Part shown: positions 397 through 26,156 of the stretch, piece after piece
Layout of the letters: every line of letters begins with the position of its first letter
How positions within the stretch are numbered: position 1 is the stretch's first letter
Virus record (IMG/VR): IMGVR_UViG_2617270939_000002
DNA: 34,039 nt
Source of the DNA: a virus
Taxonomy: Duplodnaviria > Heunggongvirae > Uroviricota > Caudoviricetes
Reading direction: 5' to 3' (one strand)
Made by a program: the position numbers and the translations under genes
The notes under the pieces: generated by a model
Told to the model about the DNA's origin: nothing
Seen by the model: only the letters and a program-made list of their open reading frames with translations
Databases searched by the model: none

Positions 397-411
397 AAGG
401 AGCAATGAGCA

Positions 412-2426: not shown

Positions 2427-2433
2427 GTTTTCC

Positions 2434-2832: not shown

Positions 2833-2848
2833 CGTGTCAGATGCAACC

Positions 2849-4148: not shown

Positions 4149-4160
4149 AGGTCGCCGCCC
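4149..4160 (-). other. Lambda-type cosN cohesive-end sequence (GGGCGGCGACCT on minus strand) with adjacent cosB-like sequence
   Basis: Reverse complement of 4149-4160 is GGGCGGCGACCT followed by TCGC...TCGCTATTTATGAAAATTTTC, about 180 bp upstream of Nu1 start as in lambda. Confidence 0.7.
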
Positions 4161-4218
4161 CGTAACAAGGCGGATCGCCGGAAAGGACCCGCAAACGATA
4201 ATAATTATCAATTGCATA

Positions 4219-4947: not shown

Positions 4948-5332
4948 GGAATATTTCCTTTTAGGCGTGAGCCTGTCGCACGGCAATGCCGCCCGAGAGG
5001 TAAACGCAACCTAACGGCATCACCCAGGCTCACTACTGAAAGACTCTCTTTGATGTGCGCGTGCGATGCGCGTAGAAGACTGATTTATCAACCTGTCTTT
5101 ATATCAGGATTCATTACCTGACTATTTGTGGGTAAAGTTCGTAGTGCGCTGATCGTGCAAAATGATTTTAGTTGGGAACAGTTCGCAACTCTGTCCCATA
5201 AAAATCAGCATATTCCCATCTATCCCATATCCAGCGCATTGACCATCGGGATACTGAAGGGAGATTCCATCATCTCTTAGAAAGATCACCATCTCTTTTG
5301 TTTCAATTTGCATATAGCTACCTGGAGGATTT

Positions 5333-5947: not shown

Positions 5948-5983
5948 ATCCAAGCCCGTTTTGTACGGGCTGTTGCATTATCA

Positions 5984-6014
5984 CAGGCACTCAGTGAATG
6001 CCTGCTGTAATGCC
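5984..6014. repeat. 31-bp direct repeat copy 1 (contains hairpin CAGGCA-N9-TGCCTG)
   Basis: caggcactcagtgaatgcctgctgtaatgcc; second copy at 6371-6401 with one mismatch. Confidence 0.6.
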
Positions 6015-6030
6015 CGTCGTGATGACCATT

Positions 6031-6092
6031 AAAAAAGCCACTCGAAAGTGGCCTTTGTGATGGCAATAAAAAACCGCCCGTAGGCGGTTATA
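6031..6092. terminator. Two tandem hairpins flanked by A/T runs (bidirectional rho-independent terminators)
   Basis: gccact-cgaa-agtggc (6037-6052) and ccgcc-cgta-ggcgg (6074-6087), each with A-run upstream and T-rich downstream. Confidence 0.5.
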
Positions 6093-6108
6093 TTCAGCAG
6101 GTCGCATG

Positions 6109-6273
6109 TTATCTGTGAATGACAAACAGCGATTTACATTTAGGGCAAAGTAACGCCTGTTGTTGGCGTACTTTCGTGGTCGAGTGTGTGGATTTATGTC
6201 CGCATATCGGGCACATGACAGTCGTATTGGCTGCAAGCCCAACACGCTGCATTGCATAATCGAAAAATGACAT
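6109..6273 (-). CDS. Small zinc-ribbon protein (54 aa, two CxxC pairs)
   Basis: Own translation MSFFDYAMQRVGLAANTTVMCPICGHKSTHSTTKVRQQQALLCPKCKSLFVIHR; ATG at 6273; terminators immediately downstream; below the 60 aa ORF-track cutoff. Confidence 0.45.
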   Translation of the reverse strand: MSFFDYAMQRVGLAANTTVMCPICGHKSTHSTTKVRQQQALLCPKCKSLFVIHR

Positions 6274-6370
6274 GGTGGTTAACCTTTCAATGAATGGGGC
6301 TTATTATACCATGCATAGCTCAATTATTAATCAATCATCATCGCATGCTTGATGCCATTTAACTTTGTCG

Positions 6371-6401
6371 CAGGCACTCAGTGAATGTCTGCTGTAATGC
6401 C
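6371..6401. repeat. 31-bp direct repeat copy 2
   Basis: caggcactcagtgaatgtctgctgtaatgcc. Confidence 0.6.
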
Positions 6402-6714
6402 TGCTCAGCCAAGTTGAAGCACACCGTGTTCTTTTGAATCAGAGAATGCAACAAACCCAGTGTATTCGGGGATAGTGTTCCGTCATCAGCATCAAATGCT
6501 GAAATGGTTGCGTGAAGAATCAAAAATGCTCCAAATCCCGCGCCGCTGCTGCCCCTCGATGGTCAGAATCGTCAAGGAGGACCCGTTAAAAGGTAAGCAG
6601 AAAATCTGTGGTTAGAAGTGAAGGCTTTGACAACGTTCTAAATTTTATGACAGAAATAAAAAAGCATTACCTTTCAAGATAATGCTTTTTCACTCGAACT
6701 GAGTCTTATAACAA

Positions 6715-6888
6715 TTAGATTAATGTGATTTTAATATCATAGCTTTCAAGCCCAGTCATTTTTTCACGAGCATTAAACTGGATATCGGAAACTTCTTTTC
6801 CTGTCTTTTTTTTGAGTTCAATAATTTTTTTTGTGATGAATTCAGAAATATCCGCTTCAGTTTTTCTTTTTAAATCTTCGACGTTCAT
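6715..6888 (-). CDS. GnsA/GnsB-family small protein (57 aa)
   Basis: Own translation MNVEDLKRKTEADISEFITKKIIELKKKTGKEVSDIQFNAREKMTGLESYDIKITLI closely resembles E. coli GnsA/GnsB; RBS GAGAGGT. Confidence 0.8.
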   Translation of the reverse strand: MNVEDLKRKTEADISEFITKKIIELKKKTGKEVSDIQFNAREKMTGLESYDIKITLI

Positions 6889-7092
6889 TGTTTACCTCTC
6901 TTGATCTCTAACGTATCAACGCCAGGCATGTTACATTCCCCGTAGAGCACTTGTATAAGCGCTGATATGTTTAAAAGATAGAATAGAAAGACTCAATTAT
7001 CAATAGTTTGCAGTACAATCTTCATGCAAAAGAGCTCGCGACCACACAAACCACTGTACTAAAATCCGGGTCGGTCACGAAACAACCAGATC

Positions 7093-7323
7093 TCATTTCA
7101 AAAGCTTCGAGGCTGCCTCGAGGATCTCTTCTGAACTGACATCACGATCAGAGGCTACATAAACTATTTTATGGTCTCCTGTCAGAGATGGAAATCCCGC
7201 TGACATCACGGGTAGGTGTGCTTTTTCCCCATTGGGAAACTCACGCATTATCGTAGTAATACCTTTCATTACGGTTACAACAACTGCTGGTTCTGCATTA
7301 AAAAAAACGATGACTTTTTTCAT
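7093..7323 (-). CDS. Hypothetical small protein (76 aa)
   Basis: ORF with MKK start; weak RBS; no family recognised. Confidence 0.4.
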   Translation of the reverse strand: MKKVIVFFNAEPAVVVTVMKGITTIMREFPNGEKAHLPVMSAGFPSLTGDHKIVYVASDRDVSSEEILEAASKLLK

Positions 7324-7396
7324 AATTTTACCGTGATGTCTCTTACAGAGATTGTCGGTTCAGCATACAAAAAAGGCTCCATAAGGAGCCTGAAAT

Positions 7397-7612
7397 TTAT
7401 TTTCTGAATTCTAACGAAGACTGACCAGAACGAATGTACAGTGCAATATTATCAAATGTAATCATTGTTGATTTGCAAAAAATACATTTTGCTCCGAAAG
7501 GATTTTTTTCAGTAACATCAAAGTTTGACGTTCGGTACTGAGATCCGTGGCAACACGGACATCTGAAGTGAATATTATTAGTAATAACAGTTACCTTATA
7601 CAGCCACGACAT
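7397..7612 (-). CDS. Hypothetical zinc-ribbon-like small protein (71 aa; CPCC...CIFC)
   Basis: ATG at 7612; two Cys pairs about 22 residues apart; overlaps 3' end of csp gene by 17 nt; weak RBS. Confidence 0.3.
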
Positions 7613-7808
7613 TAACTGCCGTGGGGCCTTTAGGTCCCTGTTCAACACTAAATTCAACTTCCTGATTCTCATTCAACGTCTTGAAATCATTACTCTGGAT
7701 AGCAGAGAAGTGAACAAACACATCTTTACTACCATCTTTTGGAGTGATAAAACCAAAACCTTTTTCAGGATTAAACCATTTAACTAAACCAGTCATTTTA
7801 TTAGACAT
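7596..7808 (-). CDS. Cold-shock protein, CspA family (CspB-like)
   Basis: [53 protein letters not shown]... ; long AT-rich upstream leader typical of csp genes. Confidence 0.9.
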
Positions 7809-8240
7809 AAACATTACCTTTATTGAGTAAGCCCTTGGGCAGAATGGTCCGAAAAAAAATTATCAGAGAGAAAAGCTAACAAGGAAATCTCAACAGGAAC
7901 AAGGAATAAAATTATTACAGCGACTGCTTCAGATAAATTCGTTACAAACCAGACATTCATTAACGCATGATTAACCAGACATAGCAAGGTTTAGTTTTGT
8001 AAGTAAATCTCAGTGGGTTTTGATCTTAAAAATTAATTTAAATAGCTTAAATCGAAAATTATGTCATGCTGCGTAAGACCTTTATCTATCACCCTAAGTT
8101 GTCAGGGATTTTGACTCAAGGAAGAGTCGTATTTCCTTCATAGTAAAAATTCACAAATTTATCCACGAAAACCGTCAACATCTTAATTTATAGAGCTATT
8201 ATTTTTCCTCTACGGTTCATTGTTAGTATTTTTACGGACT

Positions 8241-8345
8241 CATAAATCCGCTCACATGTCATTCCTGCTCGGTAGTTTTCATCAGCGCGTTCAGCATGGT
8301 ATCGAGCTTCTTCTGCCAGGCTTCCTGGCATGTCTACGAGCATTG
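8241..8345 (-). pseudogene. Orphan 3' fragment duplicated from the gene at 9196..9669 (about 105 bp, about 80 percent identical to 9237..9341)
   Basis: Direct sequence comparison of the two stretches (ctcaca(t/c)gtcattcctgc...atcgagcttcttctgc...). Confidence 0.55.
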
Positions 8346-8380
8346 TGGTGTCATGGCGGATGGAAAGTTATGTTGATTCG

Positions 8381-8584
8381 TTAGTTATCGAGCTGTAGAA
8401 CGCTATGCTCTAGCGACTCGGAATAGGCAATCAGCCCGGTGTACTCAGGGATAACCTCGCCATCATCCGCTTCGAACTCAGGGATTGTTCCGGTAGTGAT
8501 GGTATATTGTGGCTGGCCATCTTCTTTTGCGAAGGCAGCCAGGTCTTCAATCTGCTTAGCTGTAAGAACTACTGTAATGCTCAT
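8381..8584 (-). CDS. Hypothetical acidic small protein (67 aa)
   Basis: ORF only; SD very close to ATG. Confidence 0.35.
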   Translation of the reverse strand: MSITVVLTAKQIEDLAAFAKEDGQPQYTITTGTIPEFEADDGEVIPEYTGLIAYSESLEHSVLQLDN

Positions 8585-8968
8585 TCCTCAGTTGTTAAAA
8601 AGCCCCGCTATTGCGAGGCTTGATTGATTATGGCTAACGACTACATCGTAACGGTTATAAAAGAAGCTATTAGCCAACATGTGGTGTATGGTTGTTAACC
8701 GCCCACCAGGACAATCAACATGTCGATACTCAAAGATATCAAGATGCGTACTTTACGCCATGTGAAAAGTACTTGTCCTCATTGCTCCCGCCAGTCAAAG
8801 CACAGTCTGTCGAGAATAAAAAACAATATAACGTTAATTTGCCCCTTCTGTGGAAACATCTATCTTCCATCGGAAAGCAAACCAATAAAGTAACTGATTG
8901 ACTACCAAATAAAACTCATACTCTCAGAATGTGGCAAAGCAGACATAACCTTTTATTGTTGTTCTCAT

Positions 8969-9199
8969 TTAAGAGAATGTAACACCCAGAGTGGAGAGGT
9001 TTTTTTTCTTCTCCACAATACGGCGATCAAGTTCAGCCACTGCATGCGGGCGTATGGCATCAAGAAAGGCGTTATCCTGATAGGTAGACTGGATTGTCAC
9101 ACCAAGTCCGGCACCACTTTCCAGTATGCTTTTCTGAAGTTGTAGTTCTTTTATATCGTTATTGAGGTAATACGCTTCACTTAGGTTTTCTGCGTTCAT
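8969..9199 (-). CDS. Hypothetical phage protein (76 aa)
   Basis: ATGA start/stop overlap with upstream gene suggests translational coupling. Confidence 0.5.
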
Positions 9200-9669
9200 C
9201 TTCTAACCCTGTTGTTGTTTGACTGCCTCACTGAGTCGTAAATGCGCTCACACGTCATTCCTGCCCGGTAGCTTTCGTCAGATCGCTCAGCATAATATCG
9301 AGCTTCTTCTGCAAGGCGTCCGAGCATGTCGGCGAGCACTGCGGCGTCGGCTCCGGCTGTTTTGCTTCTGACGGCAGTGGCAAGATCTGCGGTGTGCTTT
9401 GCGGCGTCCAGGCGAGTGGCAAGCTTTGTTGCTTCGGTACGCAGCTGGTTAACAGTGGCAGACAGGCCAGCAGCAGTGGCAGCGGATTTACCGACAATAA
9501 TTGCCCAGTCACTCAGGCTTAACCCTGCAATTCTGTCGGCCAACATCCAGGACACCTCTTTTGCTGTTTTAGCTGTTTCGGCATATGCCTTCGCTGATAC
9601 ACCGCAGCCGGTCAGCGTGGTTCCTGTTCCATATGAAAGTCTGCTGTAAATGGTGCTCATTCTGGTCAT
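9196..9669 (-). CDS. Hypothetical phage protein (157 aa)
   Basis: ATG at 9669 preceded by GGAGGTGAGG; Ala/Thr-rich helical protein. Confidence 0.6.
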
Positions 9670-9912
9670 AGCCTCACCTCCGATTATTCGGATGGCGCTG
9701 TGTGTTTGAAAAGGGTCAGGCTTCACGGGCTGGATTTATCAACAAAGCACGTAGCGGATGATTCCCGTGAGCCTGAAATAGAAAAGGCCACGCAAATGCG
9801 CAGCCTGTAACCAGAAATCAATATTGTCTTTACATCAATTTTTCTTAAGGTTAAATTCTTCTGACAAGTTGATGAAAGACAACTTGAATATTAGCTATTT
9901 GTTCTCTGTTAT

Positions 9913-9939
9913 GCCCGCAACCCAATGCGGGCTTTTTTT
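9913..9939 (+). terminator. Rho-independent terminator (gcccgca-acccaa-tgcgggc followed by T7)
   Basis: Perfect 7-bp GC stem followed by ttttttt on plus strand in an otherwise gene-free interval. Confidence 0.55.
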
Positions 9940-10113
9940 CGCCCTGCTAAAAGTTCCACCGTTGTGAGCCTTTTTGCTATGCAATAATGGATGCGTGGTG
10001 CCGGGTGTCTCCCGGTGATCCTTTGGCTGACAACCCATGCCTCACGAACATTTCACAACGGGATATAGAAAAGGCCATGCATTTGCATAGCCCTGAAAGA
10101 TGTTTATGCTTTA

Positions 10114-10611
10114 TTAATTCGCTGGAATATCTGGCATGGCGCGATCCATAGAAGAGCTAATTAACGCCTTAATAGCGTTGCATACCTGATAAAATCCACC
10201 CAGCTGAGATGAGACAGAAAAACGGGAGACGTCGTCTCCTGAGCCTACTTCAGCATAAAATGATGAGTTCTCATACCAGAGTGAGATGCTTACGCCCTGC
10301 CTGTAGCCACCTGTTAGCGGAGAATCATCAAGAGTGGTTGCAATCACGAAATTCAAGTGGTAACGGCTGTCCATATTGAGTTGGGGGATTAAGACAGGAA
10401 AGAACTTCCCCTCCTCCTCCCAAATACCAATGTCCACATAAGGCCATCTTGTTCCGTCAGAACCAGTCCACTCACGAGATGTAAGATCAAGAGAACCTGA
10501 ATACTCTCGTAGTAGTTCGCTCGCCTTCTCCTGAAGTTTATCCTGTAACTTCCATTGCGCCTCGACCAGTTTAGTGCGTTTTTCTTTCAGATCCTTAAAT
10601 GTTAATTCCAT
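10114..10611 (-). CDS. Hypothetical phage protein (alternative start 10647)
   Basis: ORF; ATG at 10611 with GGAG upstream. Confidence 0.5.
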   Translation of the reverse strand: MELTFKDLKEKRTKLVEAQWKLQDKLQEKASELLREYSGSLDLTSREWTGSDGTRWPYVDIGIWEEEGKFFPVLIPQLNMDSRYHLNFVIATTLDDSPLTGGYRQGVSISLWYENSSFYAEVGSGDDVSRFSVSSQLGGFYQVCNAIKALISSSMDRAMPDIPAN

Positions 10612-10836
10612 GCCACTCTCCAGACAACTTTTGAAAGGAATCTGCATAGTAACTCACCCTGAAAGCACATGGTTATATTTCACTTACACTGAGTGCGAAA
10701 AGCAAAAACCCCGCCGAATGGCAGGGTTCATAATCAGTTTCATTTGGATGCACGTATCCATGATTAGAAGCATACACGACAACTTCGGACAAAATCAAGC
10801 CCTGCGTCACGAAAATGCTAAATATCACGCGTATCG

Positions 10837-11037
10837 TCACACAAACTGGTCATCACCTGGAAGCTGCATTGTGATTTTCACAATGGAGGTCTTAAAGCGC
10901 TGTTTTAGCTTAGTGAACTGTGAGGCCCAATCCATGCCCATGCCGTCAATGATCGGCTTCATTGGGGTATACGGCTCACCATTGCGATTCACAACATAGA
11001 GTGCATTTCCGTGGAACGGGACGGTAATTGTATTCAT
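10837..11037 (-). pseudogene. Antirepressor N-terminal domain fragment (P22 AR N-term/Ant-like), truncated after about 66 aa
   Basis: MNTITVPFHGNALYVVNRNGEPYTPMKPIIDGMGMDWASQFTKLKQRF resembles phage antirepressor N-terminal domains; much shorter than typical. Confidence 0.45.
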
Positions 11038-11318
11038 AGCGTTTTGCCTTACTTTGAGATGAACCTTTGCCGCACAGGAGATCAGCCCGTCGAGGCTCGC
11101 CAGCACTAACTGACTCCTCAACGGCTCATTCCAAAAGGTTGGGTTCGACGTGATTGAATGCGCTGCGGTGCGCGGTGAAATGCAGATACAAAAAAGCCCC
11201 GGTATTAAACCGAGGCTTATAATTCTTTCTCTTTTTCAGAGAATGCGGATTAAAGAACGTGCTTCATTGCTGGTTTCATCACAGCTTGGCACATATTTAC
11301 TACTTTCATTTCTCATTT

Positions 11319-11540
11319 TCAATTTATTTTTTTTGCACAGTTAGCCTGCACTGATTTATTGTGCACCAATATGTCCCGCTTCGTCTGCTTATCCAGCACG
11401 GCAATATCGTGTTCAGTGAGGTAGATAATGTCCACCCAGTCACAGGCTGTGTCCGTTAATTCAGGTTTTGCGGGTAAAGTTTTCGCGCAACTCACGGTCA
11501 ACATCGTCATCAGGAAGATGATTAACAGTTTGCTGTACAT
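11319..11540 (-). CDS. Lipoprotein, putative o-spanin (Rz1-like), overlapping 3' end of upstream gene in another frame
   Basis: Signal peptide MYSKLLIIFLMTMLTVSC with Cys lipobox; overlap architecture typical of spanin pairs; position downstream of endolysin. Confidence 0.45.
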   Translation of the reverse strand: MYSKLLIIFLMTMLTVSCAKTLPAKPELTDTACDWVDIIYLTEHDIAVLDKQTKRDILVHNKSVQANCAKKIN

Positions 11541-11730
11541 CCCTGGCTCCTTTTGTTGTCTCTACCCGGCGTTCAGCAACAGCTTCAGTAGCTGTTGCAC
11601 GTTCTTCAGTGCGCTGCTGATCGGCTTTGGCTTCCGCTTTGCTGGTGCCGCGTGAATGACCAATGCCAAAAGCACCAGCGATAGCTGCCATTATCAGGGC
11701 AGCAATACCGACGATTGTTTCTAATCCCAT
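11461..11730 (-). CDS. Small N-terminally membrane-anchored charged protein, putative i-spanin (Rz-like, short)
   Basis: MGLETIVGIAALIMAAIAGAFGIG TM segment then charged coil; GAGGT RBS; immediately after endolysin. Confidence 0.45.
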   Translation of the reverse strand: MGLETIVGIAALIMAAIAGAFGIGHSRGTSKAEAKADQQRTEERATATEAVAERRVETTKGARDVQQTVNHLPDDDVDRELRENFTRKT

Positions 11731-11737
11731 AGTGACC

Positions 11738-12367
11738 TCACACCAGCACAGACTTCGCCAGGTTAAACAGCGCGCGGCGTTTATCCAGCCCGTTACGTCC
11801 GCCATTGATAAGCAGCGTGACGCGCTCCACATCGCCTGAATGGAGCAGGCATCCGTGCGAGACGTAGAACCATGCGGCGGAGCGCGCAGCGTATTCATCT
11901 CGTTCCAGTAGTTCTGGATACGAAACCAGATCCAGTTTGAGAGCCTGGCCGCAACTGCGATAGTTGCTAAGCCCGGTGATTTGCTTAAGGCCTCGGCCGC
12001 GATATTTCCAGCCATCACCAGCAACCTGGTTGCCCAGGTTCTTTTTGCCCCACTCACCGCCGTAAACCAGATTGGCTATCGCTTTCTGATTTGCCGGTTG
12101 CGTTGCCGTTCTGCCGAGTGCGGCGGCCTGCTGCGCAGTAATGCGATGCTTGCCGAACGTAGGTACCAGGTTTTCTGCCGCATAGTTCAGGTTTTCCACC
12201 AGCCGGGTGAAACCGCCGGACTCATGGCCCATCTGCGCGATAAACATGGCCTGATCGAGCGGCGCGGTTATGCCGAATTCCTTCACTGCAGCATCGATAT
12301 GCGAAAACCAGCGCGAAGCGAGCCCGGCGCTAATGCCAGCCGCCTTTTGAAATTGTGATTGGTTCAC
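11738..12367 (-). CDS. Phage endolysin, glycoside hydrolase family 19 (chitinase-like lysozyme); GTG start (alternative ATG at 12415)
   Basis: MFIAQMGHESGGFTRLVENLNYAAE...GRGLKQITGLSNY motifs; GTGA overlap with upstream gene stop. Confidence 0.8.
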   Translation of the reverse strand: MNQSQFQKAAGISAGLASRWFSHIDAAVKEFGITAPLDQAMFIAQMGHESGGFTRLVENLNYAAENLVPTFGKHRITAQQAAALGRTATQPANQKAIANLVYGGEWGKKNLGNQVAGDGWKYRGRGLKQITGLSNYRSCGQALKLDLVSYPELLERDEYAARSAAWFYVSHGCLLHSGDVERVTLLINGGRNGLDKRRALFNLAKSVLV

Positions 12368-12645
12368 GTTGTGCTTTCCCCTGCTATTCTTGCGATGTTG
12401 CCACGTGCTCGCCATACAGCTATGCAGACAACAAGGTTGACGACCAACTCTCCGTAGTCGACCTGCACGTAATCACCATGCCAGATGCGGAAAGCGGTAA
12501 ACGCTGGAGCGAGGATCAGCCCATAGGCCAGAAACTCCATCAGACGGCGGCGCCGTAAGCTCCGCTTCCTGAAGAACATCAGGCGTATGGTGATGAGGAT
12601 GCATGCAACAGCGTTAATGTTCAGGATCAGTGTTTGCCACGTCAT
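12364..12645 (-). CDS. Small two-TM membrane protein in lysis cassette (holin partner/antiholin candidate)
   Basis: Hydrophobic segments plus RKRSLRRRR basic patch; ATGA coupling to the upstream holin-like gene. Confidence 0.5.
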   Translation of the reverse strand: MTWQTLILNINAVACILITIRLMFFRKRSLRRRRLMEFLAYGLILAPAFTAFRIWHGDYVQVDYGELVVNLVVCIAVWRARGNIARIAGESTT

Positions 12646-13046
12646 TCTTCCCCCTTCAATCCGGGTAAGTCTCCTGTCTTCGACCGTTTGAGGATGCGAG
12701 CCAGGATGGTGACAGAAACCGATGAAGCCAGCAGGGCACCCATAGCTGGAGATACCTTCACGGAAACTGGAGGAGAAAGGTGACTTAATGCCGCATTGAT
12801 TAGCGCAGCGATGATTTCAGATGCTGTTCCGGCGCAGTAGACTCCACCAATGAATGAGATGAGCGCGAACAGTATCTGCTTCCAGATTTTGTGGTCTTCA
12901 CTGCTCAGGACATAAAGAGCAGCCCCGGCAAGTGAGCAAAGCATTACAGCGGGTGTCGCTTCTGGAAACATCGTCGCGAAGGTGATTCCGGTAGTGCCGG
13001 CGGCCACGCCTGCCGTTACCGTTGCAGATATCGGTTCTGCGGACAT
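12642..13046 (-). CDS. Putative holin (134 aa, multi-TM with charged C-terminal tail)
   Basis: ATG at 13046 with GAGGGGG RBS; TM-rich with C-terminal KRSKTGDLPGLKGEE; first large gene of lysis cassette. Confidence 0.55.
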   Translation of the reverse strand: MSAEPISATVTAGVAAGTTGITFATMFPEATPAVMLCSLAGAALYVLSSEDHKIWKQILFALISFIGGVYCAGTASEIIAALINAALSHLSPPVSVKVSPAMGALLASSVSVTILARILKRSKTGDLPGLKGEE

Positions 13047-18878: not shown

Positions 18879-19532
18879 TCATGTTTTATATAGCCTAAAT
18901 AAACCAAGAAGTATACTTACACAACGACCTTCACGCCGAAGAAGCTGTCAGATACGCCAGCAACCAAAGCATTACGTTTAAGTGTCAGTCATTGATACGA
19001 AGGGATAACTGCGTATCAGCAGCCGGACATTGAGTCGAATAAAGGCTGGTAGAGAGGGACAGTTCTGTGTCACCGGGAGATTCGTCAGAAACATCAGCGG
19101 CAGAACAGATGAACCAGCAATTGGTAGTGCACAGAAAACTCTCCAGTATTTAATTATTCAACTTAACACTAAAAAAAATCACATATTTAATATCATAATT
19201 TTTCTTTGGTCTACGTATGCGAGAGTTATTGTGGCTTTAACCGGGTATTAGGAGTCGTTTCAGATAAAAGATGTTCTTCGATTCGACTGGACTTGGTAAT
19301 AGCAATAAGTAATCGTTAATATTGAAGGACGAAAGGCTACTTCAAAACAAAGTAACCTTTCCAATATTCCCATCTATGGGACAAGTGGTACATTAACTGC
19401 ACATAGTGCAGGATACATATGACATAAAACTTTTTATTTATGGCATACATTATAAATAACTTGTATTTTATGAATGTCAATAGGTTCTTGTTTAATACTT
19501 TTAAAATAATTAATTGATTGTTTTTATTATAG

Positions 19533-19552
19533 CTTCGCTTGTACAAGCGAAG
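19533..19552. repeat. Perfect 9-bp inverted repeat around a central TA dinucleotide (CTTCGCTTG-TA-CAAGCGAAG)
   Basis: Read directly; the 2-nt spacer argues for a DNA-level protein-binding or crossover site rather than an RNA hairpin. Confidence 0.6.
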
Positions 19553-19587
19553 ATCCTATTGTTCTTGAATGAATAATGCCAATTATA

Positions 19588-19631
19588 AGAGAAGCAAGGG
19601 CTAACTCTGCGAAGCCGCTGCGCTTGCTTCT
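19588..19631. other. GC-rich stem-loop (10-bp perfect stem gagaagcaag/cttgcttctc, 24-nt structured loop) inside an AT-rich ORF-free gap
   Basis: Read directly; followed on plus strand by a C/T-rich tract. Confidence 0.5.
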
Positions 19632-20612
19632 CCGGTTTCCCCTTGCTTTTCTTCCCTTCGGTTAGAAAAGAAAAACCTGGTCTTTCTCTTTCAATGTCTG
19701 CACATTTACTACAACAGATTAGACAATCGCAACTATTTATTTTATATGGAAAACTAGTGCTTAAATTGCAGCTCTCATTTTTATCAATCATTTTGCATAA
19801 GATAAATTTAAGTTTATATACCAAGGCATCCCGTTAGTTTTTACACGTAGGTAAACTAATAGTCAAAATCGAACTTTGAATTGTAGATTCTTTTAATTTA
19901 ACTCTATCCATCCGGTTAGAGGTAAAGGGAGGTTCATTTCAAGATATCATTGAACACAGTTCCAGATTAATATTATCAAAGAATTGAAAAAGATAATTAT
20001 TATTGCAATCCGTTAATGAGTCCACTTCAATTTTCCGTTCTTCTTACAGCGTTCTGAACAGTTAAACATATGATAGCTATTTAAAACCTTCGGTAATCTT
20101 ATCCAATACGGACTTGTCTGGTTTGATAATTACCAGAATCACACTATGCTCTTCAGTCTAATTTGTCAGTGATAAGGAGATCCGACCTATCGAACTTGCG
20201 TCATTTCCTAAATTTAGTGATTATAAATGTGGTTATCTATGGTCTTGTTGTGAAGATGTAGGCTGGAATTATCATGACGAACTGCAGCCTACATAAGCCG
20301 ACAGTACGGCTTTGATCGAATCATTAACTCTTTTATCATCTCAGGAACTGTGCAGACATTCCAGTTCAATTTTATAACGTTCAGTAAAAATTTAAAAAGG
20401 TGACAGCCCATGATCTCAATTGCAGACAATCAACCGTCTTTGATGATCATGGGTATATAAGTTTAACAAGATGTCTTCATCTCATGTGATTAAAATATAT
20501 AACAACACTAATTTAAAAATCGATTCTTAACTCTTCCAAAATATCACCCTTTATATTTCATTAAATTAATATCATAACTACACATACTAATTAGATAGTG
20601 TGTTAATTAAAT

Positions 20613-22739
20613 TCATCTAACTGACTCAATGATCTTTTGTTCTATAACTCGCCCACCTTGCTTTCCAGACAAAGGACCAATTAGTACTTTAAAGTCGGCA
20701 TAGTCATCTGCCTCAGGCCTATGCTCTATAATAACAATTGCATTGAATAATTTAGATTTTTGATATATAAAATTCAGCACCTTCGAAGCCGTCTCAGAAT
20801 CAAGTCCAGCGACAGGTTCATCAATAAACAATATTTTGTTTGTTTTTCTGGACTTAGATAGTATTTCACATAATTTTATTCTACGCATTTCACCACCTGA
20901 CAGGGACTGCGTTTTTCTATTAAGTTTCAAATGTGATATTCCAAGATAATGGATAGTTTCAAGAATAGTATTAATCTTAGTGTTATTAAAAAAAGAGCTT
21001 AACTCTTTCAACTCAGTATCATATACATCTATTATATTCATACCATTAATCTGAGACTTTACTTCATCTATATTGTGGTCAAACAGTTTACCCTCACATT
21101 TATGACATGATATGTAGATATCCTTTTCAAAACCCCTTTCATATTTTATCACGCCCTTACCTTCACAAACTTTACATCCACCAAGTTTGTTTGGAAGGAA
21201 ATACTCTATATCTAATTTTGTTATATCGGAGAAAAATTCTGCAATTAATTTATTCAAATCCGTGATAGTTGCGACAGTAGAACGTCCTGTATATGATGAC
21301 AATTTTTGGCTTATATAAATCGAATCGGTAAGACTACAAATAGCTTTAGCTAAAGATGATTTCCCCGATCCGGAGATTCCAGAAAAAACAGTAACACACT
21401 CTTTAGGGATACGTATATTTTGATTAATGATGTTATTTTTATTAAGCCCTTCAAAATAATAGTAATCAGATATATTATTTTTGGGATTGAGGTTCCTTTG
21501 CGGCTGAATTTTTTCTTTTTCACAAATTTCCCCACCAGAAGAACCAGCGTATTTACCAACATGGATTTGCTGATCAGCAAGATCTATGAAATACTGCGAG
21601 TGCTCTACTAAAATAACTGTGTTTTTTTCTGATAATTTTTTTAGCTTTTGAAAGATAACTTCAAAATCGACAGGGTTAATTTGGGATGATATTTCATCGA
21701 TAACAATCAGAATACCTGTTGTATTAGATGTTAAAAGCCTGCTGAAAATAAGTTTTTGTATTTCCCCCCCAGAAAGACTGGGAATTGAACGAGACAAATT
21801 TAAATATCCCAATCCCATATTATTTATTGAGGACAACACTCTAATTAATACTGAGTCACCTATAGTTTTTTTCAGGGTATTACATAATTCAGATATAGGA
21901 GATAGTAAAAATTCATCAAATGTAAATCCTAAAACATCAAGTTGGGCTGTTTCTTGGTTAATTCTGCTTCCATTACAAAATGAGCAATTTTCTTCCTTTT
22001 TATACTTTGAATTGTTTTGGCTCCGTCCTATATTCGAATTAGCAAAAGACATTACGCCTTTATAAAAAGCTCTTCTTTGCTTCGTTTTTCCTTTGTGTTT
22101 AAATCTAAAAGATAATTTCTCAGCGCTTTCTCCATATAGTATTAGGTTTTTCTTTTCAAGTGATAGTGAATCAAAAGTATCATCTACTTTTATATTATTT
22201 TTATCACAATAGACCATAAGTAATTGGTGATAATAATCAGATAACTCACCAGTCCGCCAACATAAAAATGGTTTTTGATCTAGTCTACATTTTTCATTAA
22301 TTAATTCAGATTCATCCACACTAACTATCTCGCCAAGGCCTAAGCAGTGTGGACATTCATTTCTATAATTGTTTATTTTTAATTTATCATAATTAGGTAC
22401 TGCTACGTTTCTTTTGATTTTTAAAGATGACAAAGCTTGAGCTATATTCAGATATGAATATATAGTTGAACGAGGGTTGTTATTTGTGTTTCTTTGTGGT
22501 ATCGCAACAGCGGGAATTAACCCACTGAAATTTGCAACTTTATAATCACTTTCATTCAAATAACCGTTTTCTACAGCATCAAACTCATCTTTGCATAATT
22601 GATAAATTGATGAAAATGCTAAAGAACTTTTTCCTGCGCCCGAACGGCCATAAATAGCGGTTATTGTATTAAATGGTATAGTAACATCTAAATTTTTTAA
22701 ATTATGGGTGGCTATTCCCTCAAAAATGATCTTATTCAT
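20613..22739 (-). CDS. UvrA-like double-ABC ATPase with zinc-finger insertions (708 aa)
   Basis: Two Walker A motifs (GRSGAGKSS, GISGSGKSS), two ABC signatures (LSGGEIQKL, LSGGEMRRI), several CxxC pairs; AGAGGA RBS; ATG overlaps upstream stop as ATGAATAA. Confidence 0.85.
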   Translation of the reverse strand: MNKIIFEGIATHNLKNLDVTIPFNTITAIYGRSGAGKSSLAFSSIYQLCKDEFDAVENGYLNESDYKVANFSGLIPAVAIPQRNTNNNPRSTIYSYLNIAQALSSLKIKRNVAVPNYDKLKINNYRNECPHCLGLGEIVSVDESELINEKCRLDQKPFLCWRTGELSDYYHQLLMVYCDKNNIKVDDTFDSLSLEKKNLILYGESAEKLSFRFKHKGKTKQRRAFYKGVMSFANSNIGRSQNNSKYKKEENCSFCNGSRINQETAQLDVLGFTFDEFLLSPISELCNTLKKTIGDSVLIRVLSSINNMGLGYLNLSRSIPSLSGGEIQKLIFSRLLTSNTTGILIVIDEISSQINPVDFEVIFQKLKKLSEKNTVILVEHSQYFIDLADQQIHVGKYAGSSGGEICEKEKIQPQRNLNPKNNISDYYYFEGLNKNNIINQNIRIPKECVTVFSGISGSGKSSLAKAICSLTDSIYISQKLSSYTGRSTVATITDLNKLIAEFFSDITKLDIEYFLPNKLGGCKVCEGKGVIKYERGFEKDIYISCHKCEGKLFDHNIDEVKSQINGMNIIDVYDTELKELSSFFNNTKINTILETIHYLGISHLKLNRKTQSLSGGEMRRIKLCEILSKSRKTNKILFIDEPVAGLDSETASKVLNFIYQKSKLFNAIVIIEHRPEADDYADFKVLIGPLSGKQGGRVIEQKIIESVR

Positions 22740-23814
22740 ACTTTCCTCTACACCAATCACATTCAGGATCACGTGGAACATCTTGGACGTTAAAAGATAA
22801 ACTTCTAAGACTAAATTCGACTCTTTTATTTTCTTGTTGCAAGTGATCTACTTTCCCGGCAAGTAATTTTATAGCGTCCAAGCTTGCAAGGCTTGCAGCC
22901 AGACCTGATAGTGGTGAAAATGAACCTAATTTTCGTTTTACCCGGTGCAATTTCTTCACATTAACAAGGTCTTTGCTATTTATTTTTCCTAAAAATAGGT
23001 TAAAACAATTAAAGCATGCTGACTTAAATGGAATAATTGTCTGACCGATAAGGGTTTGATGAAGATTATATCCCCCGCCAACTATATGTGGGATATTATG
23101 AATCATACTAAAGAGGGCGATTATTTTACTGGTGTAATCCACATTAGGTTCATCAGCGCAGTTTATTATCAAATCTATATCAGAGGGTAGAATATTTCTT
23201 TTAAAAAAATCATCATCGATAATGTCATTGATAATGTCAATCTTAATATCTGGAGATATCTTTTTCAAAGAGTTGAGTAACGCTATATTTTTATCAGAGT
23301 TAATTTCATCCTCGAAATAAAACTGACGATGTAAATTACTTATATCTACATTATCGTGATCTACAAATATTATCGAACCAACATTGCAATGAGCAAGATA
23401 CGTTGCCACATTACTACCGACTGCTCCAATACCTACAATCATTACTTTTGATTTTTTAAGATTAATTATACATTCTAAAACCTCACTGGTGGTATGACAG
23501 TAGTCTTCAAATGTATTGATCATTCTATATTGTTCAGTGACAAGCTCTGCAGGGTATTGGCAATCTTGATCGATAATTATATTGTTTTCATTCAAAAACA
23601 AAGCTAATTTTTCAAGTTGTTGAATATCGATTCCTGAATAATTTGCTACAATTTCTTGAAGAGAAGTTTGCCCATCAAACATCTTTAAGAGTTCAACTAT
23701 ATTTGGAAAGTTGATTTTTATTTTTATACTTTCTCTAATATTGGATTTAAAAAACTCTACAGTATCATCATTTACGACGATACCAATACTTTGTCGCAGT
23801 CTAAAATTATTCAT
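22732..23814 (-). CDS. E1-like adenylyltransferase (ThiF/MoeB/MccB family) with PqqD-like N-terminal peptide-binding domain, paralog B (alternative GTG start at 23832)
   Basis: KVMIVGIGAVGSNVATYLAHCNVGSIIFVDHDNVDISNLHRQ nucleotide-binding motif; N-terminal LLKMFDGQTSLQEIV; C-terminal CFNC...CDWC. Confidence 0.8.
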   Translation of the reverse strand: MNNFRLRQSIGIVVNDDTVEFFKSNIRESIKIKINFPNIVELLKMFDGQTSLQEIVANYSGIDIQQLEKLALFLNENNIIIDQDCQYPAELVTEQYRMINTFEDYCHTTSEVLECIINLKKSKVMIVGIGAVGSNVATYLAHCNVGSIIFVDHDNVDISNLHRQFYFEDEINSDKNIALLNSLKKISPDIKIDIINDIIDDDFFKRNILPSDIDLIINCADEPNVDYTSKIIALFSMIHNIPHIVGGGYNLHQTLIGQTIIPFKSACFNCFNLFLGKINSKDLVNVKKLHRVKRKLGSFSPLSGLAASLASLDAIKLLAGKVDHLQQENKRVEFSLRSLSFNVQDVPRDPECDWCRGKYE

Positions 23815-24931
23815 TACAGATTTTGCATCCACTTTGTTTTACCAATTCAAAATTAGTCATTTTGCCTTCGTTTGGAAGGTATTCATACCGACTATTTACA
23901 TATGAAAATGCTGAATCATCCAACAGGAAGTGAATTAATTTCATGCAACTTAGATTAGCTGAAAAACCATTCATCATTGCTAATCCACCAGGCCCTCCTG
24001 GAATATAATTATCATAGACAGATTTTGAAAGGTCCAGTTGAGGATTATTGACTATACTATATACAGGCTTCCATCCTTTTAATGCCTTTGAAAACGTATT
24101 TTGGGCACAATCTATACAGGGTGTATGTGGAGGGAATATTAATTCTCCTGAACTCATTAAGTGGGCGTCAAATCCACCTGATACATACAGCGGAATAGCT
24201 CTTGCTTGTGCATATCTACCAAGTTTTAAAGAAGTATGACCTATATAAGGCTCATCACAAGTATTAATAATCAGATCTGTATCATCAGAAATGATAGAGG
24301 ATAGATTAGTAGTAGGTATAAGTTTTTCAAAATGTTTTGTTATTATTACTCGACTATCGATCCAACTCAAAAATTCTGACAGGACATCTACCTTTGGTTT
24401 TCCGATTTTCTTATAGTTATAATAACAATGCCTTGCTGCATTTGACTTTGAAAGGGACTTATAATCAACCAAAACTATATTTTTAACACCTGCGCGGACA
24501 AGTATTTCTATAATTTTGGCTCCTACAGCTCCACACCCAAATAAAACAACCTTTTTGCTCTCCAAGATATGTTGAGTTTCTACACCAGGTCGTTCAAGGA
24601 CAAAATCGTCCCAAAATGTAATTTGTCGTGAAAAACGAGGTTCAATATCGCAAATGTTATTTACATCATAAATAAAATGTTGATTTAGTAAAAAAGCAAT
24701 TAGTTTATCGACATCTTTTGAGCGTAGGGACCCCATCTCAGTAACTATATCATTTATAGTTTTTATACCATCAAGGCTGGCAATAAATCGAGCGACATTT
24801 TTATTAGTTTTTATTTCTAATCTATCACGCGTTGTCATCACATGAAATGTGAGTTTGACATTATCAGTATTATCTTCATTCGATATAAAAATATCCACAG
24901 TTTCTTTTATTTTATATTTTTTGGAGTCCAT
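23807..24931 (-). CDS. E1-like adenylyltransferase (ThiF/MoeB/MccB family) with PqqD-like N-terminal peptide-binding domain, paralog A
   Basis: KKVVLFGCGAVGAKIIEILVRAGVKNIVLVDYK motif; N-terminal FIASLDGIKTINDIVTEMG; C-terminal CIDC...CKIC. Confidence 0.8.
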   Translation of the reverse strand: MDSKKYKIKETVDIFISNEDNTDNVKLTFHVMTTRDRLEIKTNKNVARFIASLDGIKTINDIVTEMGSLRSKDVDKLIAFLLNQHFIYDVNNICDIEPRFSRQITFWDDFVLERPGVETQHILESKKVVLFGCGAVGAKIIEILVRAGVKNIVLVDYKSLSKSNAARHCYYNYKKIGKPKVDVLSEFLSWIDSRVIITKHFEKLIPTTNLSSIISDDTDLIINTCDEPYIGHTSLKLGRYAQARAIPLYVSGGFDAHLMSSGELIFPPHTPCIDCAQNTFSKALKGWKPVYSIVNNPQLDLSKSVYDNYIPGGPGGLAMMNGFSANLSCMKLIHFLLDDSAFSYVNSRYEYLPNEGKMTNFELVKQSGCKICNE

Positions 24932-24945
24932 TGTATATTCCCAAT

Positions 24946-24970
24946 AAAATCGCCCATCAAGGGCGATTTT
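24946..24970 (-). terminator. Perfect 10-bp hairpin (aaaatcgccc-atcaa-gggcgatttt) between small ORF and first E1-like gene; candidate attenuator/partial terminator
   Basis: Read directly; placement between a small ORF and enzyme genes is the classic precursor/processing arrangement. Confidence 0.5.
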
Positions 24971-24979
24971 GAATTTAGA

Positions 24980-25180
24980 TTAATATTGGAGAACGCCGGC
25001 GTTAACCTCCAAGTATTTTTCCCAAGCATCTAAATTCGACGCTGAGTTTTGCTCGTCGTTACCAGCTCGCGTGCATACACGAGTACAACAGTCACTACGT
25101 TCTCCAGAGCAACCACCCGTATAGTTGGCGGTAGCATTGGTATTGCTGATGACTTCAAATGTTAAATCTAAACACTGCAT
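24980..25180 (-). CDS. Small Cys-rich protein (66 aa), candidate precursor/substrate peptide of the E1-like operon
   Basis: ATG at 25180 with AAGGA RBS; MQCLDLTFEVISNTNATANYTGGCSGERSDCCTRVCTRAGNDEQ...; GC content higher than the enzyme genes, so assignment is tentative. Confidence 0.4.
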   Translation of the reverse strand: MQCLDLTFEVISNTNATANYTGGCSGERSDCCTRVCTRAGNDEQNSASNLDAWEKYLEVNAGVLQY

Positions 25181-25610
25181 ATCAGGTCCTTTGCAAGTCA
25201 ATTGATTAGCAAGCTAAGCATTCTCTTTGATATAGCTTAATTTTAAGAAAAAACTTACCCTTCATGATGATTAAATCACAAAACTTCTGTTCATGGGAAT
25301 GGTAATTTTTTGTGCGGATTCAATGCCAAATCTCATCAACAGATCGTCCTAAATAGATGCTCGGAATAGTAAAACAGTTTGAGGGAACTCAGCACGCACT
25401 GAGCGAAGCAGATCGTAGCACTTCTTCTCCGTAGCGAACGATGCCCGATACATAAAACGCTTCATAAAACCCATGACAAGACCCACACCCGCAGATTGAT
25501 CACCATGCTGATGTAGCATCGTGGTGACCGTGGCAGAGACACTGCCAAAACGCTCAGCTATGCCCGTTCATCCACTGAGCGTTGGATAAACTGGTTTACA
25601 GTTTCGAGGA

Positions 25611-26156
25611 TTGAAGACCAGAAATCGTTGCCTAAGCGATATTCTTAAAGCGTCGGCGGAACGTTCAGACAAACCCACTGGAGCTGTGCTACAGCATCTT
25701 ATTGGAGCCAAACTCCAATTGCGCTTTCCCAATGTTAAAATCGGCAGTGACAGAGCCAATGCAGCTGACTTACACACTGACCGTGAGGGTGATTTTCAGG
25801 TGGGTACTACTGCATTCCACGTGACCACCGCACCTATGGAGAAATTGATTTCGCGCTGTGTCGAAAACAAACGTGCAGGCTACAGGCCGGTCATCCTAAC
25901 TCTTGAAAGCAAAGTCATTGCAGCACGCCAGATGGCTGATAACGTTGGTATGTCTGAACAGATAGCCGTCCAGGCAGCCGAAACTTTCATCGGTAACAAT
26001 ATTGAAGAGATTGCTATCTATGACGGCGATAAAATCCGTGAGGGTCTCGCAAGACTGATACGTACGTACAACGTCCGTATCAATACTATCGAGATAGATA
26101 AATCCCTTATGATTGATGAGCCTCGTTGGATCGTTAACTTACTGACCGACTCCTGA
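25611..26156 (+). CDS. Hypothetical protein, possibly 5'-truncated gene remnant (TTG start in ORF track), in a segment of E. coli-like GC content
   Basis: 181-aa ORF without a convincing start or RBS; composition differs from flanking AT-rich DNA. Confidence 0.4.
   Translation: MKTRNRCLSDILKASAERSDKPTGAVLQHLIGAKLQLRFPNVKIGSDRANAADLHTDREGDFQVGTTAFHVTTAPMEKLISRCVENKRAGYRPVILTLESKVIAARQMADNVGMSEQIAVQAAETFIGNNIEEIAIYDGDKIREGLARLIRTYNVRINTIEIDKSLMIDEPRWIVNLLTDS

Follow-up and report, generated by a model that had tools for sequence, protein, structure and literature searches.

A conserved small Cys-rich peptide gene, two ThiF-like enzymes and a UvrA-like ATPase form a mobile cassette that probably makes a modified ribosomal peptide

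The DNA analyzed here is a stretch of 34,039 nucleotides (nt) from the IMG/VR virus record IMGVR_UViG_2617270939_000002, called the window below; it is an ssrA-associated integrative element adjoining a lambdoid prophage remnant. The minus strand of the window carries a cassette of about 4.5 kb with four genes in the following order: a small gene for a Cys-rich peptide, two paralogous genes for ThiF-like (E1-like) adenylyltransferases, E1-A and E1-B, and a gene for an ATP-binding cassette (ABC) ATPase similar to UvrA. A hairpin separates the peptide gene from the first enzyme gene. In an earlier note on this DNA, the small open reading frame (ORF) and the hairpin had been interpreted as either a precursor-attenuator arrangement or a coincidence. 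The features of the cassette are (aa, amino acids):

25187..25191, minus strand: Shine-Dalgarno sequence AAGGA of the peptide gene, 6 nt before its ATG (direct sequence reading)
24980..25180, minus strand: peptide gene, predicted precursor and putative E1 substrate (homologues, ratio of nonsynonymous to synonymous differences (pN/pS), DNA homology with Pectobacterium)
24946..24970, minus strand: perfect 10-bp terminator-like hairpin between the peptide gene and E1-A, starting 9 nt past the stop codon
23807..24931, minus strand: E1-A, 374-aa ThiF-like adenylyltransferase (Pfam ThiF, E = 8.6e-31; MccB and PaaA matches; AlphaFold2 model)
22732..23814, minus strand: E1-B, 360-aa ThiF-like adenylyltransferase (Pfam ThiF, E = 5.1e-36; MccB match; paralogue alignment)
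20613..22739, minus strand: UvrA-like ABC ATPase, 708 aa (ATG at 22739, 8-nt overlap with the E1-B stop; UvrA matches)

The peptide ORF runs from 25180 to 24980, with the ATG at 25180, 66 codons, and a TAA stop at 24982-24980. Its product is MQCLDLTFEVISNTNATANYTGGCSGERSDCCTRVCTRAGNDEQNSASNLDAWEKYLEVNAGVLQY, in which G22-G23 stand directly before the segment CSGERSDCC. The description of this ORF given in the earlier note, with its length, AAGGA ribosome-binding site, double glycine, and CSGERSDCC segment, was accurate in every element, as was that of a perfect 10-bp hairpin followed by the first E1-like start: the hairpin occupies 24970-24946, and the ATG of E1-A lies at 24931. The two arms, AAAATCGCCC and GGGCGATTTT, enclose the loop TTGAT (UUGAU); the 3' arm ends with UUUU, and AUU follows. 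The spacer between the hairpin and E1-A, ATTGGGAATATACA, is 14 nt long and contains a Shine-Dalgarno-like GGGAA; in most lineages this gap is 10-30 nt. Since 14 nt are too few for any further small ORF, no MccA-like heptapeptide is encoded between the hairpin and E1-A, as had been noted. E1-A, E1-B, and the ATPase gene follow one another with 8-nt overlaps of their ends. For E1-B, comparison with the start in Neisseria indicates that translation probably begins at ATG 23814, which gives the 8-nt overlap with the E1-A stop, and not at GTG 23832 of the mechanical call.

The peptide has numerous relatives. A search of 5.8 billion protein clusters yielded 51 homologous clusters of 57-98 aa; their sources are many metagenomes as well as Dickeya, Providencia, Pantoea, Neisseria, Vibrio, and Moraxella. 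When 1.84 billion representative proteins were searched with a profile, 50 matched, nearly all with lengths of 59-90 aa, and a scan of metagenomes revealed 134 encoded relatives. The identical 66-aa sequence is present in Klebsiella, Enterobacter, E. coli, and other Enterobacteriaceae relatives, on at least 1000 contigs in total, and among the matches listed the exact copies are always labeled 'hypothetical protein'. Diverged copies occur in Neisseria, Vibrio, Acinetobacter, Moraxella, and metagenomes of the gut. Scans of Pfam, NCBIfam, and PADLOC contained no model for this family. In comparison with Pectobacterium, the peptide gene has a pN of 0.06 and a pS of 0.95, the synonymous sites being saturated, and remoter pairs have ratios of nonsynonymous to synonymous substitution rates (dN/dS) of 0.1-0.4. 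These values indicate that the peptide sequence is under purifying selection.

The GC content of the ORF is higher than that of the enzyme genes in the window (0.45 vs 0.32-0.33), as had been reported; the suggestion that the ORF may for this reason belong to flanking DNA did not hold. The offset has the same direction in all five lineages compared, with 0.37-0.45 for the peptide gene and 0.29-0.34 for the enzymes, and thus stems from the amino-acid composition of the peptide and marks no boundary. Moreover, DNA homology between the window and Pectobacterium covers 20653-25181, beginning at the end of the ATPase gene and stopping exactly at the peptide ATG, and DNA in common with E. coli islands begins only at 25633, outside the peptide gene. 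Sequence comparison confirms the small Cys-rich ORF as a true, strongly conserved gene that belongs to the cassette, and suggests that the peptide is translated.

Alignment of the family divides the peptide into four regions. The column counts given below refer to 92 family members picked for a QY ending, an ending seen in 91 of 100 matches.

25118..25180, minus strand: leader-like region, codons 1-21, variable but for a motif around F8 and a conserved Tyr20
25067..25117, minus strand: Cys/Ser/Thr-rich core, codons 22-38, GGCSGERSDCCTRVCTR (alignment and column counts)
25031..25066, minus strand: polar linker, codons 39-50, varying in sequence and length
24983..25030, minus strand: conserved tail, codons 51-66, DAWEKYLEVNAGVLQY (column counts)

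The leader motif has the form hydrophobic-x-F-E-hydrophobic-hydrophobic, with F8 in 90 of the 92 sequences. The core of most homologues follows the near-invariant pattern C-x4-S-x-CC-T-x2-C, and each of its residues C24, S29, C31, C32, T33, and C36 is found in at least 89 members. In the tail, which ends with ...G-x-x-Q-Y-stop, W53 is present in 91 members, and G62, Q65, and the C-terminal Y66 in all 92 of this QY-selected set. No Asp or Glu is invariant, leaving the C-terminal carboxyl as the only invariant carboxyl group. This pattern would fit C-terminal activation, and we propose the alpha-carboxylate of Y66 as the candidate adenylation site. Position 22 is variable (D in 33, G in 21, A in 15, and K in 10 members), and homologues have SDG, TKT, TAG, TT, and other residues in place of the GG. 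An AlphaFold2 model of the peptide, based on a 35-sequence alignment, has a predicted local distance difference test score (pLDDT) of 54 and a predicted TM-score (pTM) of 0.19, with a single helix at residues 50-59 and no fold; given the low confidence of this model, the peptide may fold upon binding. The missing predicted fold fits a precursor peptide and not a beta-grasp modifier.

At every related locus with enough sequence, the peptide gene stands beside two ThiF-like genes. The earlier note had counted the lack of any upstream small ORF in related operons of other genomes against its interpretation; the peptide gene was found at all these loci, including loci that were reached from the enzymes (L002, L003, L021, and L020/L035). 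The four genes occur in unchanged order in diverse contexts:

Neisseria: between ssb and plsY
Vibrio parahaemolyticus (L008/L009, 326-3343): beside a resolvase and a SIR2/DUF87 ATPase pair
Moraxella plasmid: between insertion sequence (IS) elements
Pantoea: beside an integrase
Acinetobacter johnsonii plasmid pXBB1-8 (L015, 1-6287): directly after pglZ-brxL of a bacteriophage exclusion (BREX) system
Aeromonas: the same four genes in the same order

Eighty metagenomic loci were sorted by tblastn according to gene arrangement, where p is the peptide gene, A and B are the E1 genes, U is the ATPase gene, J encodes a JAB peptidase, and H an HD-CE/GHKL protein:

p-A-B-U: 27 complete, 5 truncated versions
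p-J-A-B-U: 16 complete, 13 truncated versions
U(-)-p-A-B: 6 complete, 3 truncated versions
p-H-A-B-U: 5 complete, 1 truncated version
B-A-U(-)-p: 2 complete
p-U-B-A(-): 1 complete
p alone (orphan): 1

The variety of these arrangements indicates that the peptide gene keeps its linkage to both E1 genes and the ATPase gene through rearrangement. The J gene, found between the peptide gene and E1-A in approximately 29 of the 80 loci, encodes a RadC-like JAB peptidase of 147-176 aa (PF04002, 4e-27; examples are L099 8238-8687, L080 8228-8671, and L056 1782-2288, with about 26 more); it is absent from the window and from every proteobacterial copy examined. In the H arrangement, the same place is taken by a gene whose 1014-aa product contains HD-CE and GHKL-type ATPase domains (L045 8192-11236; also L039, L042, L043, L054, and L059). 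No conserved exporter or other conserved gene was found across the loci, and neighbor genes differ from locus to locus.

All copies of the cassette are AT-rich (GC content 30-34%). Together with the mobile-element context, this points to horizontal spread. A protein-level search found the cassette on two plasmids and did not find it in phage genomes, and a near-identity search of plasmids gave no match. BLAST against 5426 E. coli genomes retrieved only a 1032-bp IS-truncated remnant of the ATPase gene. In every database copy seen, the peptide is entered as a hypothetical protein, each E1 enzyme as a 'ThiF family adenylyltransferase', and the ATPase as an 'ATP-binding cassette domain-containing protein'.

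The top sequence match in the PDB for both E1-like enzymes is MccB, with E = 7e-14 for E1-A and 6e-23 for E1-B (residues 75-363), and PaaA also matches both. The AlphaFold2 model of E1-A has a pLDDT of 84.9. In a Foldseek search its best fold match was MccB, aligned at full length (about 375 columns, E = 3e-21), although the sequence identity is only about 18%. PaaA is covered over about 370-380 columns with a TM-score of 0.77 normalized to PaaA, whereas plain MoeB and ThiF align only along the C-terminal 280 columns. The full-length match to MccB and PaaA implies that E1-A has the two-domain layout of enzymes acting on peptides that are synthesized ribosomally and modified post-translationally (RiPPs), and according to the model its N-terminal part is a peptide-binding domain of the RiPP recognition element (RRE), or peptide-clamp, type. 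In the alignment of the two paralogues, the first 95 residues of E1-B pair with those of E1-A, so for E1-B this domain is assigned by alignment only. The earlier note had called these domains PqqD-like. The peptide-binding nature suggested by that name agrees with the structural match of E1-A and the paralogue alignment of E1-B, but the Pfam PqqD model itself has no match to the E1-like proteins.

Both enzymes retain the residues expected of active adenylyltransferases. E1-B is the canonical paralogue, with GxGxxG, VDxDxVxxSNLHRQ, CADEP, and two CxxC motifs. E1-A is more divergent: it has DYKxxxxSNxxRH, an insert of 20-25 aa after the first CxxC, and the family-specific invariant motifs CDEPYIGHTS and GGFDAHLMSSGEL, and it keeps the Gly loop, D156, R167, K180, D226, the R102-Q103 finger, and two CxxC motifs. 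The Arg of the E1-A NLxRQ motif is not strictly kept, being absent in Pantoea. We considered that one E1 could be an inactive partner, similar to SAE1 or APPBP1, and dropped this possibility, as the Arg finger and the nucleotide- and Mg-binding residues are present in both. Judged by these motifs, both paralogues are probably catalytic.

The product of the fourth gene matches the TIGR00630 uvra model with E = 1.6e-107 and 361 bits, below the cut-off of 730 for true UvrA. Its PDB matches are UvrA (2r6f, 8e-83), UvrA2 (2vf7, 1e-64), and the echinomycin-resistance protein Ecm16 (7sh1, 9e-58). The protein carries the Walker A and Walker B motifs and the LSGGE signature of two complete ATP-binding modules, along with CxxCxGxG zinc modules and the insertion (DNA-binding) domain. 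It lacks a UvrB-binding domain, residues 103-122 replacing residues 128-287 of 2r6f (about 160 residues reduced to 20). By sequence, this is the layout of the class II UvrA-like proteins UvrA2, DrrC, and Ecm16. The UvrA-like nature of this gene had not been used in the earlier interpretation, which needs to be corrected in this respect. UvrA-like genes are known as self-resistance factors for DNA-binding natural products and serve as markers in genome mining (PMC9328131, PMC10192343, PMC10413001).

The hairpin is conserved as well. In the window its folding energy is -16 to -17 kcal/mol, with z = -2.9 against dinucleotide shuffles (4 of 200 fold equally well) and p = 0.002 against mononucleotide shuffles. 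A hairpin follows the peptide stop codon in seven lineages, often with a U-run, although the stem sequences are unrelated:

Window, Pectobacterium and Dickeya: stem arm AATCGCCC
Neisseria: stem arm GCCCTGTT
Vibrio: stem arm GGCTAGC
Moraxella: stem arm AGCCCTATC
Pantoea: stem arm ACCGCCTC
Acinetobacter: stem arm AAGCTACTTC
Aeromonas: stem arm TAAGGTCGCC

In each of these seven lineages the hairpin has p <= 0.005 against shuffles, and the Fisher combined p is 4e-12. Similarly, among 69 distinct metagenomic segments downstream of the peptide gene, 74% fold better than 95% of their shuffles (median z -3.4). These comparisons characterize the hairpin as a conserved terminator-like element, at which transcription may terminate in vivo. 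A promoter scan of the minus strand found no promoter-like site between the hairpin and E1-A or within the ORF. The lack of a promoter-like site before E1-A suggests that the enzyme genes depend on read-through of the hairpin. A similar situation has been demonstrated experimentally for microcin C, where a terminator in the mccA-mccB spacer makes the short precursor transcript abundant, next to a minor long transcript (PMC4231749). Of the two interpretations considered initially, coincidence fails, given that both the peptide gene and the hairpin are conserved across lineages, and the precursor-attenuator arrangement is supported by the conserved peptide gene beside the E1 pair and by the conserved hairpin.

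Based on the comparison of sequences and models, a probable though by no means certain interpretation is that the 66-codon ORF, the first gene of a mobile four-gene module, encodes a RiPP-type precursor for the MccB/PaaA-like E1 pair. Three features of ThiF-dependent RiPP systems of the MccB, PaaA, GrcB, EnfB, and IndF type are found here: (i) an adjacent conserved precursor gene, (ii) an N-terminal peptide-binding domain, seen in the E1-A model, and (iii) intact ATP-binding and catalytic residues. PMC12596934 describes MccB, EnfB, and IndF as ThiF-like RiPP enzymes that activate a C-terminal carboxylate. By analogy, the disordered peptide could be held through its Phe8-centered leader by the N-terminal domain of E1-A, E1-B, or both, and the variable linker would let the tail ...G-V-L-Q-Y-COOH reach the adenylation site. 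ATP would then adenylate the Tyr66 alpha-carboxylate, and the acyl-adenylate would be captured by a nucleophile, most likely the peptide's own Cys24, Cys31, Cys32 or Cys36, Ser29 or Thr33, or Trp53, giving a macrocycle; the second E1 paralogue may perform a second ATP-dependent step. The hairpin could act as a leaky intrinsic terminator and a 3' stabilizer, producing an abundant short precursor transcript and minor read-through for the three translationally coupled enzyme genes. In the manner of mccA-mccB, such a leaky terminator would keep the precursor in excess over the enzymes. The UvrA-like ATPase would most likely act on DNA and shield that of the producer from the product, as Ecm16 and DrrC do. 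The absence of an exporter, combined with an ATPase that may shield DNA, suggests a DNA-directed product that stays inside the cell.

Several observations weigh against this interpretation. All the support for it is comparative, and the role of the ATPase is assigned by analogy only. The core of the peptide is more conserved than the leader, opposite to what is seen in many RiPP families. None of the four proteins has a membrane segment, and the window cassette includes no exporter and no protease; an exporter-less cluster is unusual for an antibiotic RiPP. The JAB gene in about one third of the relatives would also suit a carrier-protein or ubiquitin-like logic. No consensus sigma-70 promoter was detected by the promoter scan upstream of the ORF or inside it. 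The minus-strand hairpin fails the U-run rule of a simple terminator scan, because four of its U residues are counted as part of the stem. Finally, the hairpin is missing in the p-H-A-B-U clade and its close relatives. It is also missing in L012, a divergent contig with abutting genes.

Comparison with known systems places the cassette near several characterized pathways. As in microcin C biosynthesis, the precursor gene lies directly upstream of the enzyme gene, the spacer contains a terminator hairpin (PMC4231749), the best PDB match of both enzymes is MccB, and activation of the C-terminal carboxylate is the chemistry to be expected by analogy. The precursor differs, however: it has 66 aa and ends with Gln-Tyr, whereas MccA is a heptapeptide ending with Asn. 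The terminal Asn, which leads to the aspartamide-nucleotide phosphoramidate, is replaced by Tyr in 92 of 92 (QY-selected) sequences. There are two paralogous enzymes instead of one and a UvrA-like fourth gene, and the cassette includes no MccC exporter and no MccD, MccE, or MccF. The pantocin A system (PaaP-PaaA) resembles the cassette in that PaaA, a fusion of a peptide-binding domain with ThiF, aligns with E1-A along about 370 columns. The group activated by PaaA is the side chain of a Glu in an internal Glu-Glu-Asn motif of a 30-aa peptide (PMC12596934). This motif is absent from the present family, which has no invariant acidic side chain, and the cassette has neither a PaaB oxidase nor a PaaC exporter.

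IndA/IndF and EnfA/EnfB are minimal clusters in which, according to PMC12596934, a ThiF-like enzyme that has a peptide-binding domain adenylates the C-terminal carboxylate and a Trp indole nitrogen or a backbone amide closes the ring. The invariant C-terminus and the invariant Trp located 13 residues upstream of it make the peptide described here similar. Unlike the cassette, these systems are Gram-positive, with short precursors, a single enzyme, and dedicated transporters. The cassette has a long Cys-rich precursor, two enzymes, an ATPase, and no transporter, and beyond the ThiF fold the two were compared by description. Because the terminal residue, the precursor length, and the accessory genes all differ, the cassette, while akin to the MccA-MccB and IndA-IndF pathways, falls outside both the microcin C and the pantocin families.

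The ATPase resembles Ecm16, DrrC, and UvrA2 in its two ABC modules, zinc modules, insertion domain, and missing UvrB-binding domain, and in the location of its gene within a biosynthetic-type cluster; with its 708 aa, however, it falls short of Ecm16 by about 100 residues. Known class II UvrA-like proteins guard against non-ribosomal or polyketide DNA intercalators of actinomycetes, and the literature searched contains no case in which one accompanies a ribosomal peptide with E1-like enzymes. The literature was also searched for ThiF/E1-like proteins in combination with UvrA, precursor peptide, RiPP, JAB, or defense, and no description of such a cassette was found; nor did keywords retrieve it from the 2025 review PMC12250964 or the 2025 genome-mining paper PMC12150305, and it is not mentioned in the sections of PMC12596934 that were consulted. 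We rate the cassette as a ribosomal-peptide system that depends on ThiF-like enzymes, here a pair of paralogues, and has a UvrA-like partner; it is so far undescribed in the literature searched.

A further group that we take to be relevant comparators consists of the triads of an E1-like enzyme, a JAB protein, and a small protein, such as QbsE/QbsC/QbsD, CysO/MoeZ/Mec+, and the Bil/Bub type. In these triads the C-terminus of a small protein (about 60-90 aa) is the site at which an E1-like enzyme works, as would be the case here, and a JAB gene adjoins in about one third of the relatives of the cassette. The differences are that the peptide has no predicted beta-grasp fold and ends with Gln-Tyr, not Gly-Gly, that the RadC-type JAB is absent in the window, and that the cassette has no E2 and no sulfur-transfer domain.

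Two alternative explanations, both of which we consider unlikely, have the adenylation step in common with the RiPP-type interpretation. One is that the 66-mer is a reusable carrier: a small molecule would be built on the activated C-terminal Tyr and then released, by JAB where present, with one E1 ligating an amino acid or another amine or thiol and the other modifying or cyclizing it. Such a scheme would presumably resemble the CysO/Mec+, QbsE/QbsD, LysW, or peptide aminoacyl-tRNA ligase (PEARL)-type pathways. It could account for the invariant C-terminus and the very strong conservation of the whole 'core', for the two successive ATP-dependent enzymes, for the absence of an exporter for a large peptide, and for the JAB gene that immediately follows the peptide gene at about 29 of the 80 metagenomic loci, and the neighborhood of mobile-element and defense genes adds some weight. 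However, JAB is absent from the window and all proteobacterial copies, so that release there would need a host enzyme, and no gene of the cassette would supply or tailor a small-molecule moiety. The non-beta-grasp fold, the Gln-Tyr end, the absent E2, and the MccB/PaaA-like nature of the enzymes reduce its weight further, and a peptide-binding domain fused to ThiF is a hallmark of peptide-modifying enzymes (PMC12596934).

The other improbable alternative is a ubiquitin-like defense modifier, whose C-terminus the E1 pair would conjugate to a target such as a phage or host protein or DNA, with the ATPase as a DNA sensor or effector and JAB as the deconjugating enzyme. The E1 domains do match Cap2-type E1-E2 models of the cyclic-oligonucleotide-based antiphage signaling system (CBASS) in PADLOC with E-values of 1e-16 to 1e-18, an exporter is absent, and JAB occurs in a third of the loci. 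Moreover, mobile-element and defense genes are plentiful in the neighborhood, among them BREX pglZ-brxL in Acinetobacter, SIR2 with DUF87 in Vibrio, a restriction-enzyme fragment in the window, and AbiEii in metagenomic loci. On the other hand, the AlphaFold2 model of the peptide shows one short helix and no beta-grasp (pLDDT 54), the peptide ends with Gln-Tyr instead of Gly or Gly-Gly, an E2-like gene is found in none of the loci, the closest relatives of the enzymes are MccB and PaaA with peptide-binding N-terminal domains, and no PADLOC model recognizes the whole system. The neighborhood association itself derives from samples. Twenty sampled flanking genes were a mix of housekeeping, mobile-element, and defense genes, including AbiEii, T5orf172/DUF4041, and a dCTP-deaminase-like gene, and this defense and mobile-element neighborhood is suggestive only.

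The third alternative concerns transcription. The hairpin could be a plain terminator of an independent small gene, a bidirectional terminator, or an mRNA-stability element, the enzymes having their own promoter and no attenuator coupling. The stem, flanked by an A-run and a U-run, is indeed flagged as terminator-like on the plus strand; at some loci the peptide gene lies on the strand opposite to the enzymes, and a Moraxella-like contig tolerates IS1 between the peptide gene and E1-A. Still, we find this explanation quite unlikely: no plus-strand gene converges on the hairpin, the ORF contains no promoter-like site on the minus strand, only 14 nt in the window and 10-30 nt in most lineages separate the hairpin from the E1-A ATG, and the 8-nt overlaps of the E1-A, E1-B, and ATPase genes are in the style of a single operon.

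Two more explanations have practically no chance of being correct. The GG before the Cys-rich segment of the window peptide and the ABC domains of the third downstream gene (722-aa protein) could suggest a bacteriocin of the double-glycine-leader type (class II microcin), cut after G22-G23 by a C39 peptidase ABC exporter, but this is refuted, since G22 occurs in only 21 of 92 homologues (DG, KT, AG, or TT elsewhere), so that the GG proposed as a leader motif is not conserved, and the ABC protein is UvrA-like and soluble, with no C39 domain and no membrane segment. A chance ORF in flanking DNA of other origin, as the GC difference of 0.45 vs 0.32-0.33 might imply, is likewise refuted by purifying selection, by the GC offset in all five lineages, and by the homology boundary at the ATG, with E. 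coli DNA starting only from 25633.

Returning to the RiPP-type precursor, a more specific but rather doubtful proposal is that the cassette produces a new class of peptide, closed or ligated at its C-terminal Tyr by the E1 pair, possibly as a heterodimer, and acting on DNA inside the cell as an anti-phage or anti-plasmid defense, with the ATPase clearing the host chromosome. If true, Gram-negative bacteria would have in it a ribosomal counterpart to the chemical defense of the anthracycline type with DrrC-type self-protection. The pairing of a peptide with two E1-type enzymes and a UvrA-like protein points to peptide chemistry aimed at DNA, possibly with a new logic of self-protection or immunity. 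Unusual peptide chemistry has in the ThiF-like enzymes a source that is still small but growing, with phosphoramidates, indolizidines, thiolactones, imides, and indolylamides among the examples, and two 2025 reviews describe most of the family as unexplored (PMC12596934, PMC12250964). With only four genes in about 4.5 kb, the cassette is directly testable by heterologous expression.

Some individual loci deserve mention. Locus L020 was considered as lacking the peptide gene and was rejected as such a case, the gene having been relocated past the ATPase gene, beside IS110 (L035). The orphan peptide gene at L067 (8001-8171) is followed by a 16-bp hairpin, and no E1 or UvrA-like gene is present within 8 kb upstream and 2 kb downstream. 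In a Moraxella-like metagenomic contig (L011, 692-1393), IS1 is located exactly between the peptide gene and E1-A. Single enzyme genes are broken, with the ATPase gene intact, in L005 (E1-B) and L014 (E1-A). The Dickeya loci L016 and L017 and the locus L018 come from low-quality assemblies with many frameshifts, also in neighboring housekeeping genes, and were not used as evidence of decay. The E. coli remnant belongs to strain 23AR0998 (L001, NZ_CM132249.1), where positions 10560-13032 are 99.9% identical to window 19059-21531, comprising the 3' part of the ATPase gene and downstream DNA; it is cut by IS1, flanked by IS3, and adjoins a P4-like satellite.

The lambdoid remnant in the left part of the window (1-13000) contains genes for an Ig-domain tail tube protein, tail protein U, a Nu1/portal fusion fragment, and a tail-tip fragment, as well as DUF2514 (Rz-like) and lysozyme-like genes. 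It probably explains the provirus label of the identical stretch in IMG/VR. A full-length match to the cspA thermoregulator RNA (RF01766, 141 bits, E = 1.4e-36) lies at 7537-7953 on the minus strand, within a 3-kb stretch (5947-9196) that contains no ORF of at least 100 aa. A gap of about 0.9 kb (19673-20613), outside the module shared with Pectobacterium, separates the ATPase gene from the backbone that the island has in common with E. coli; a 104-aa ORF in this region (19510-19824, minus strand) has no family match. The region directly upstream of the cassette has a GC content of about 50%, and its plus strand carries a truncated gene of the DUF4928 / type II restriction enzyme family (25611-26156, profile positions 142-306 of 306), and the E. 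coli island relatives have two DUF4928 genes in this place.

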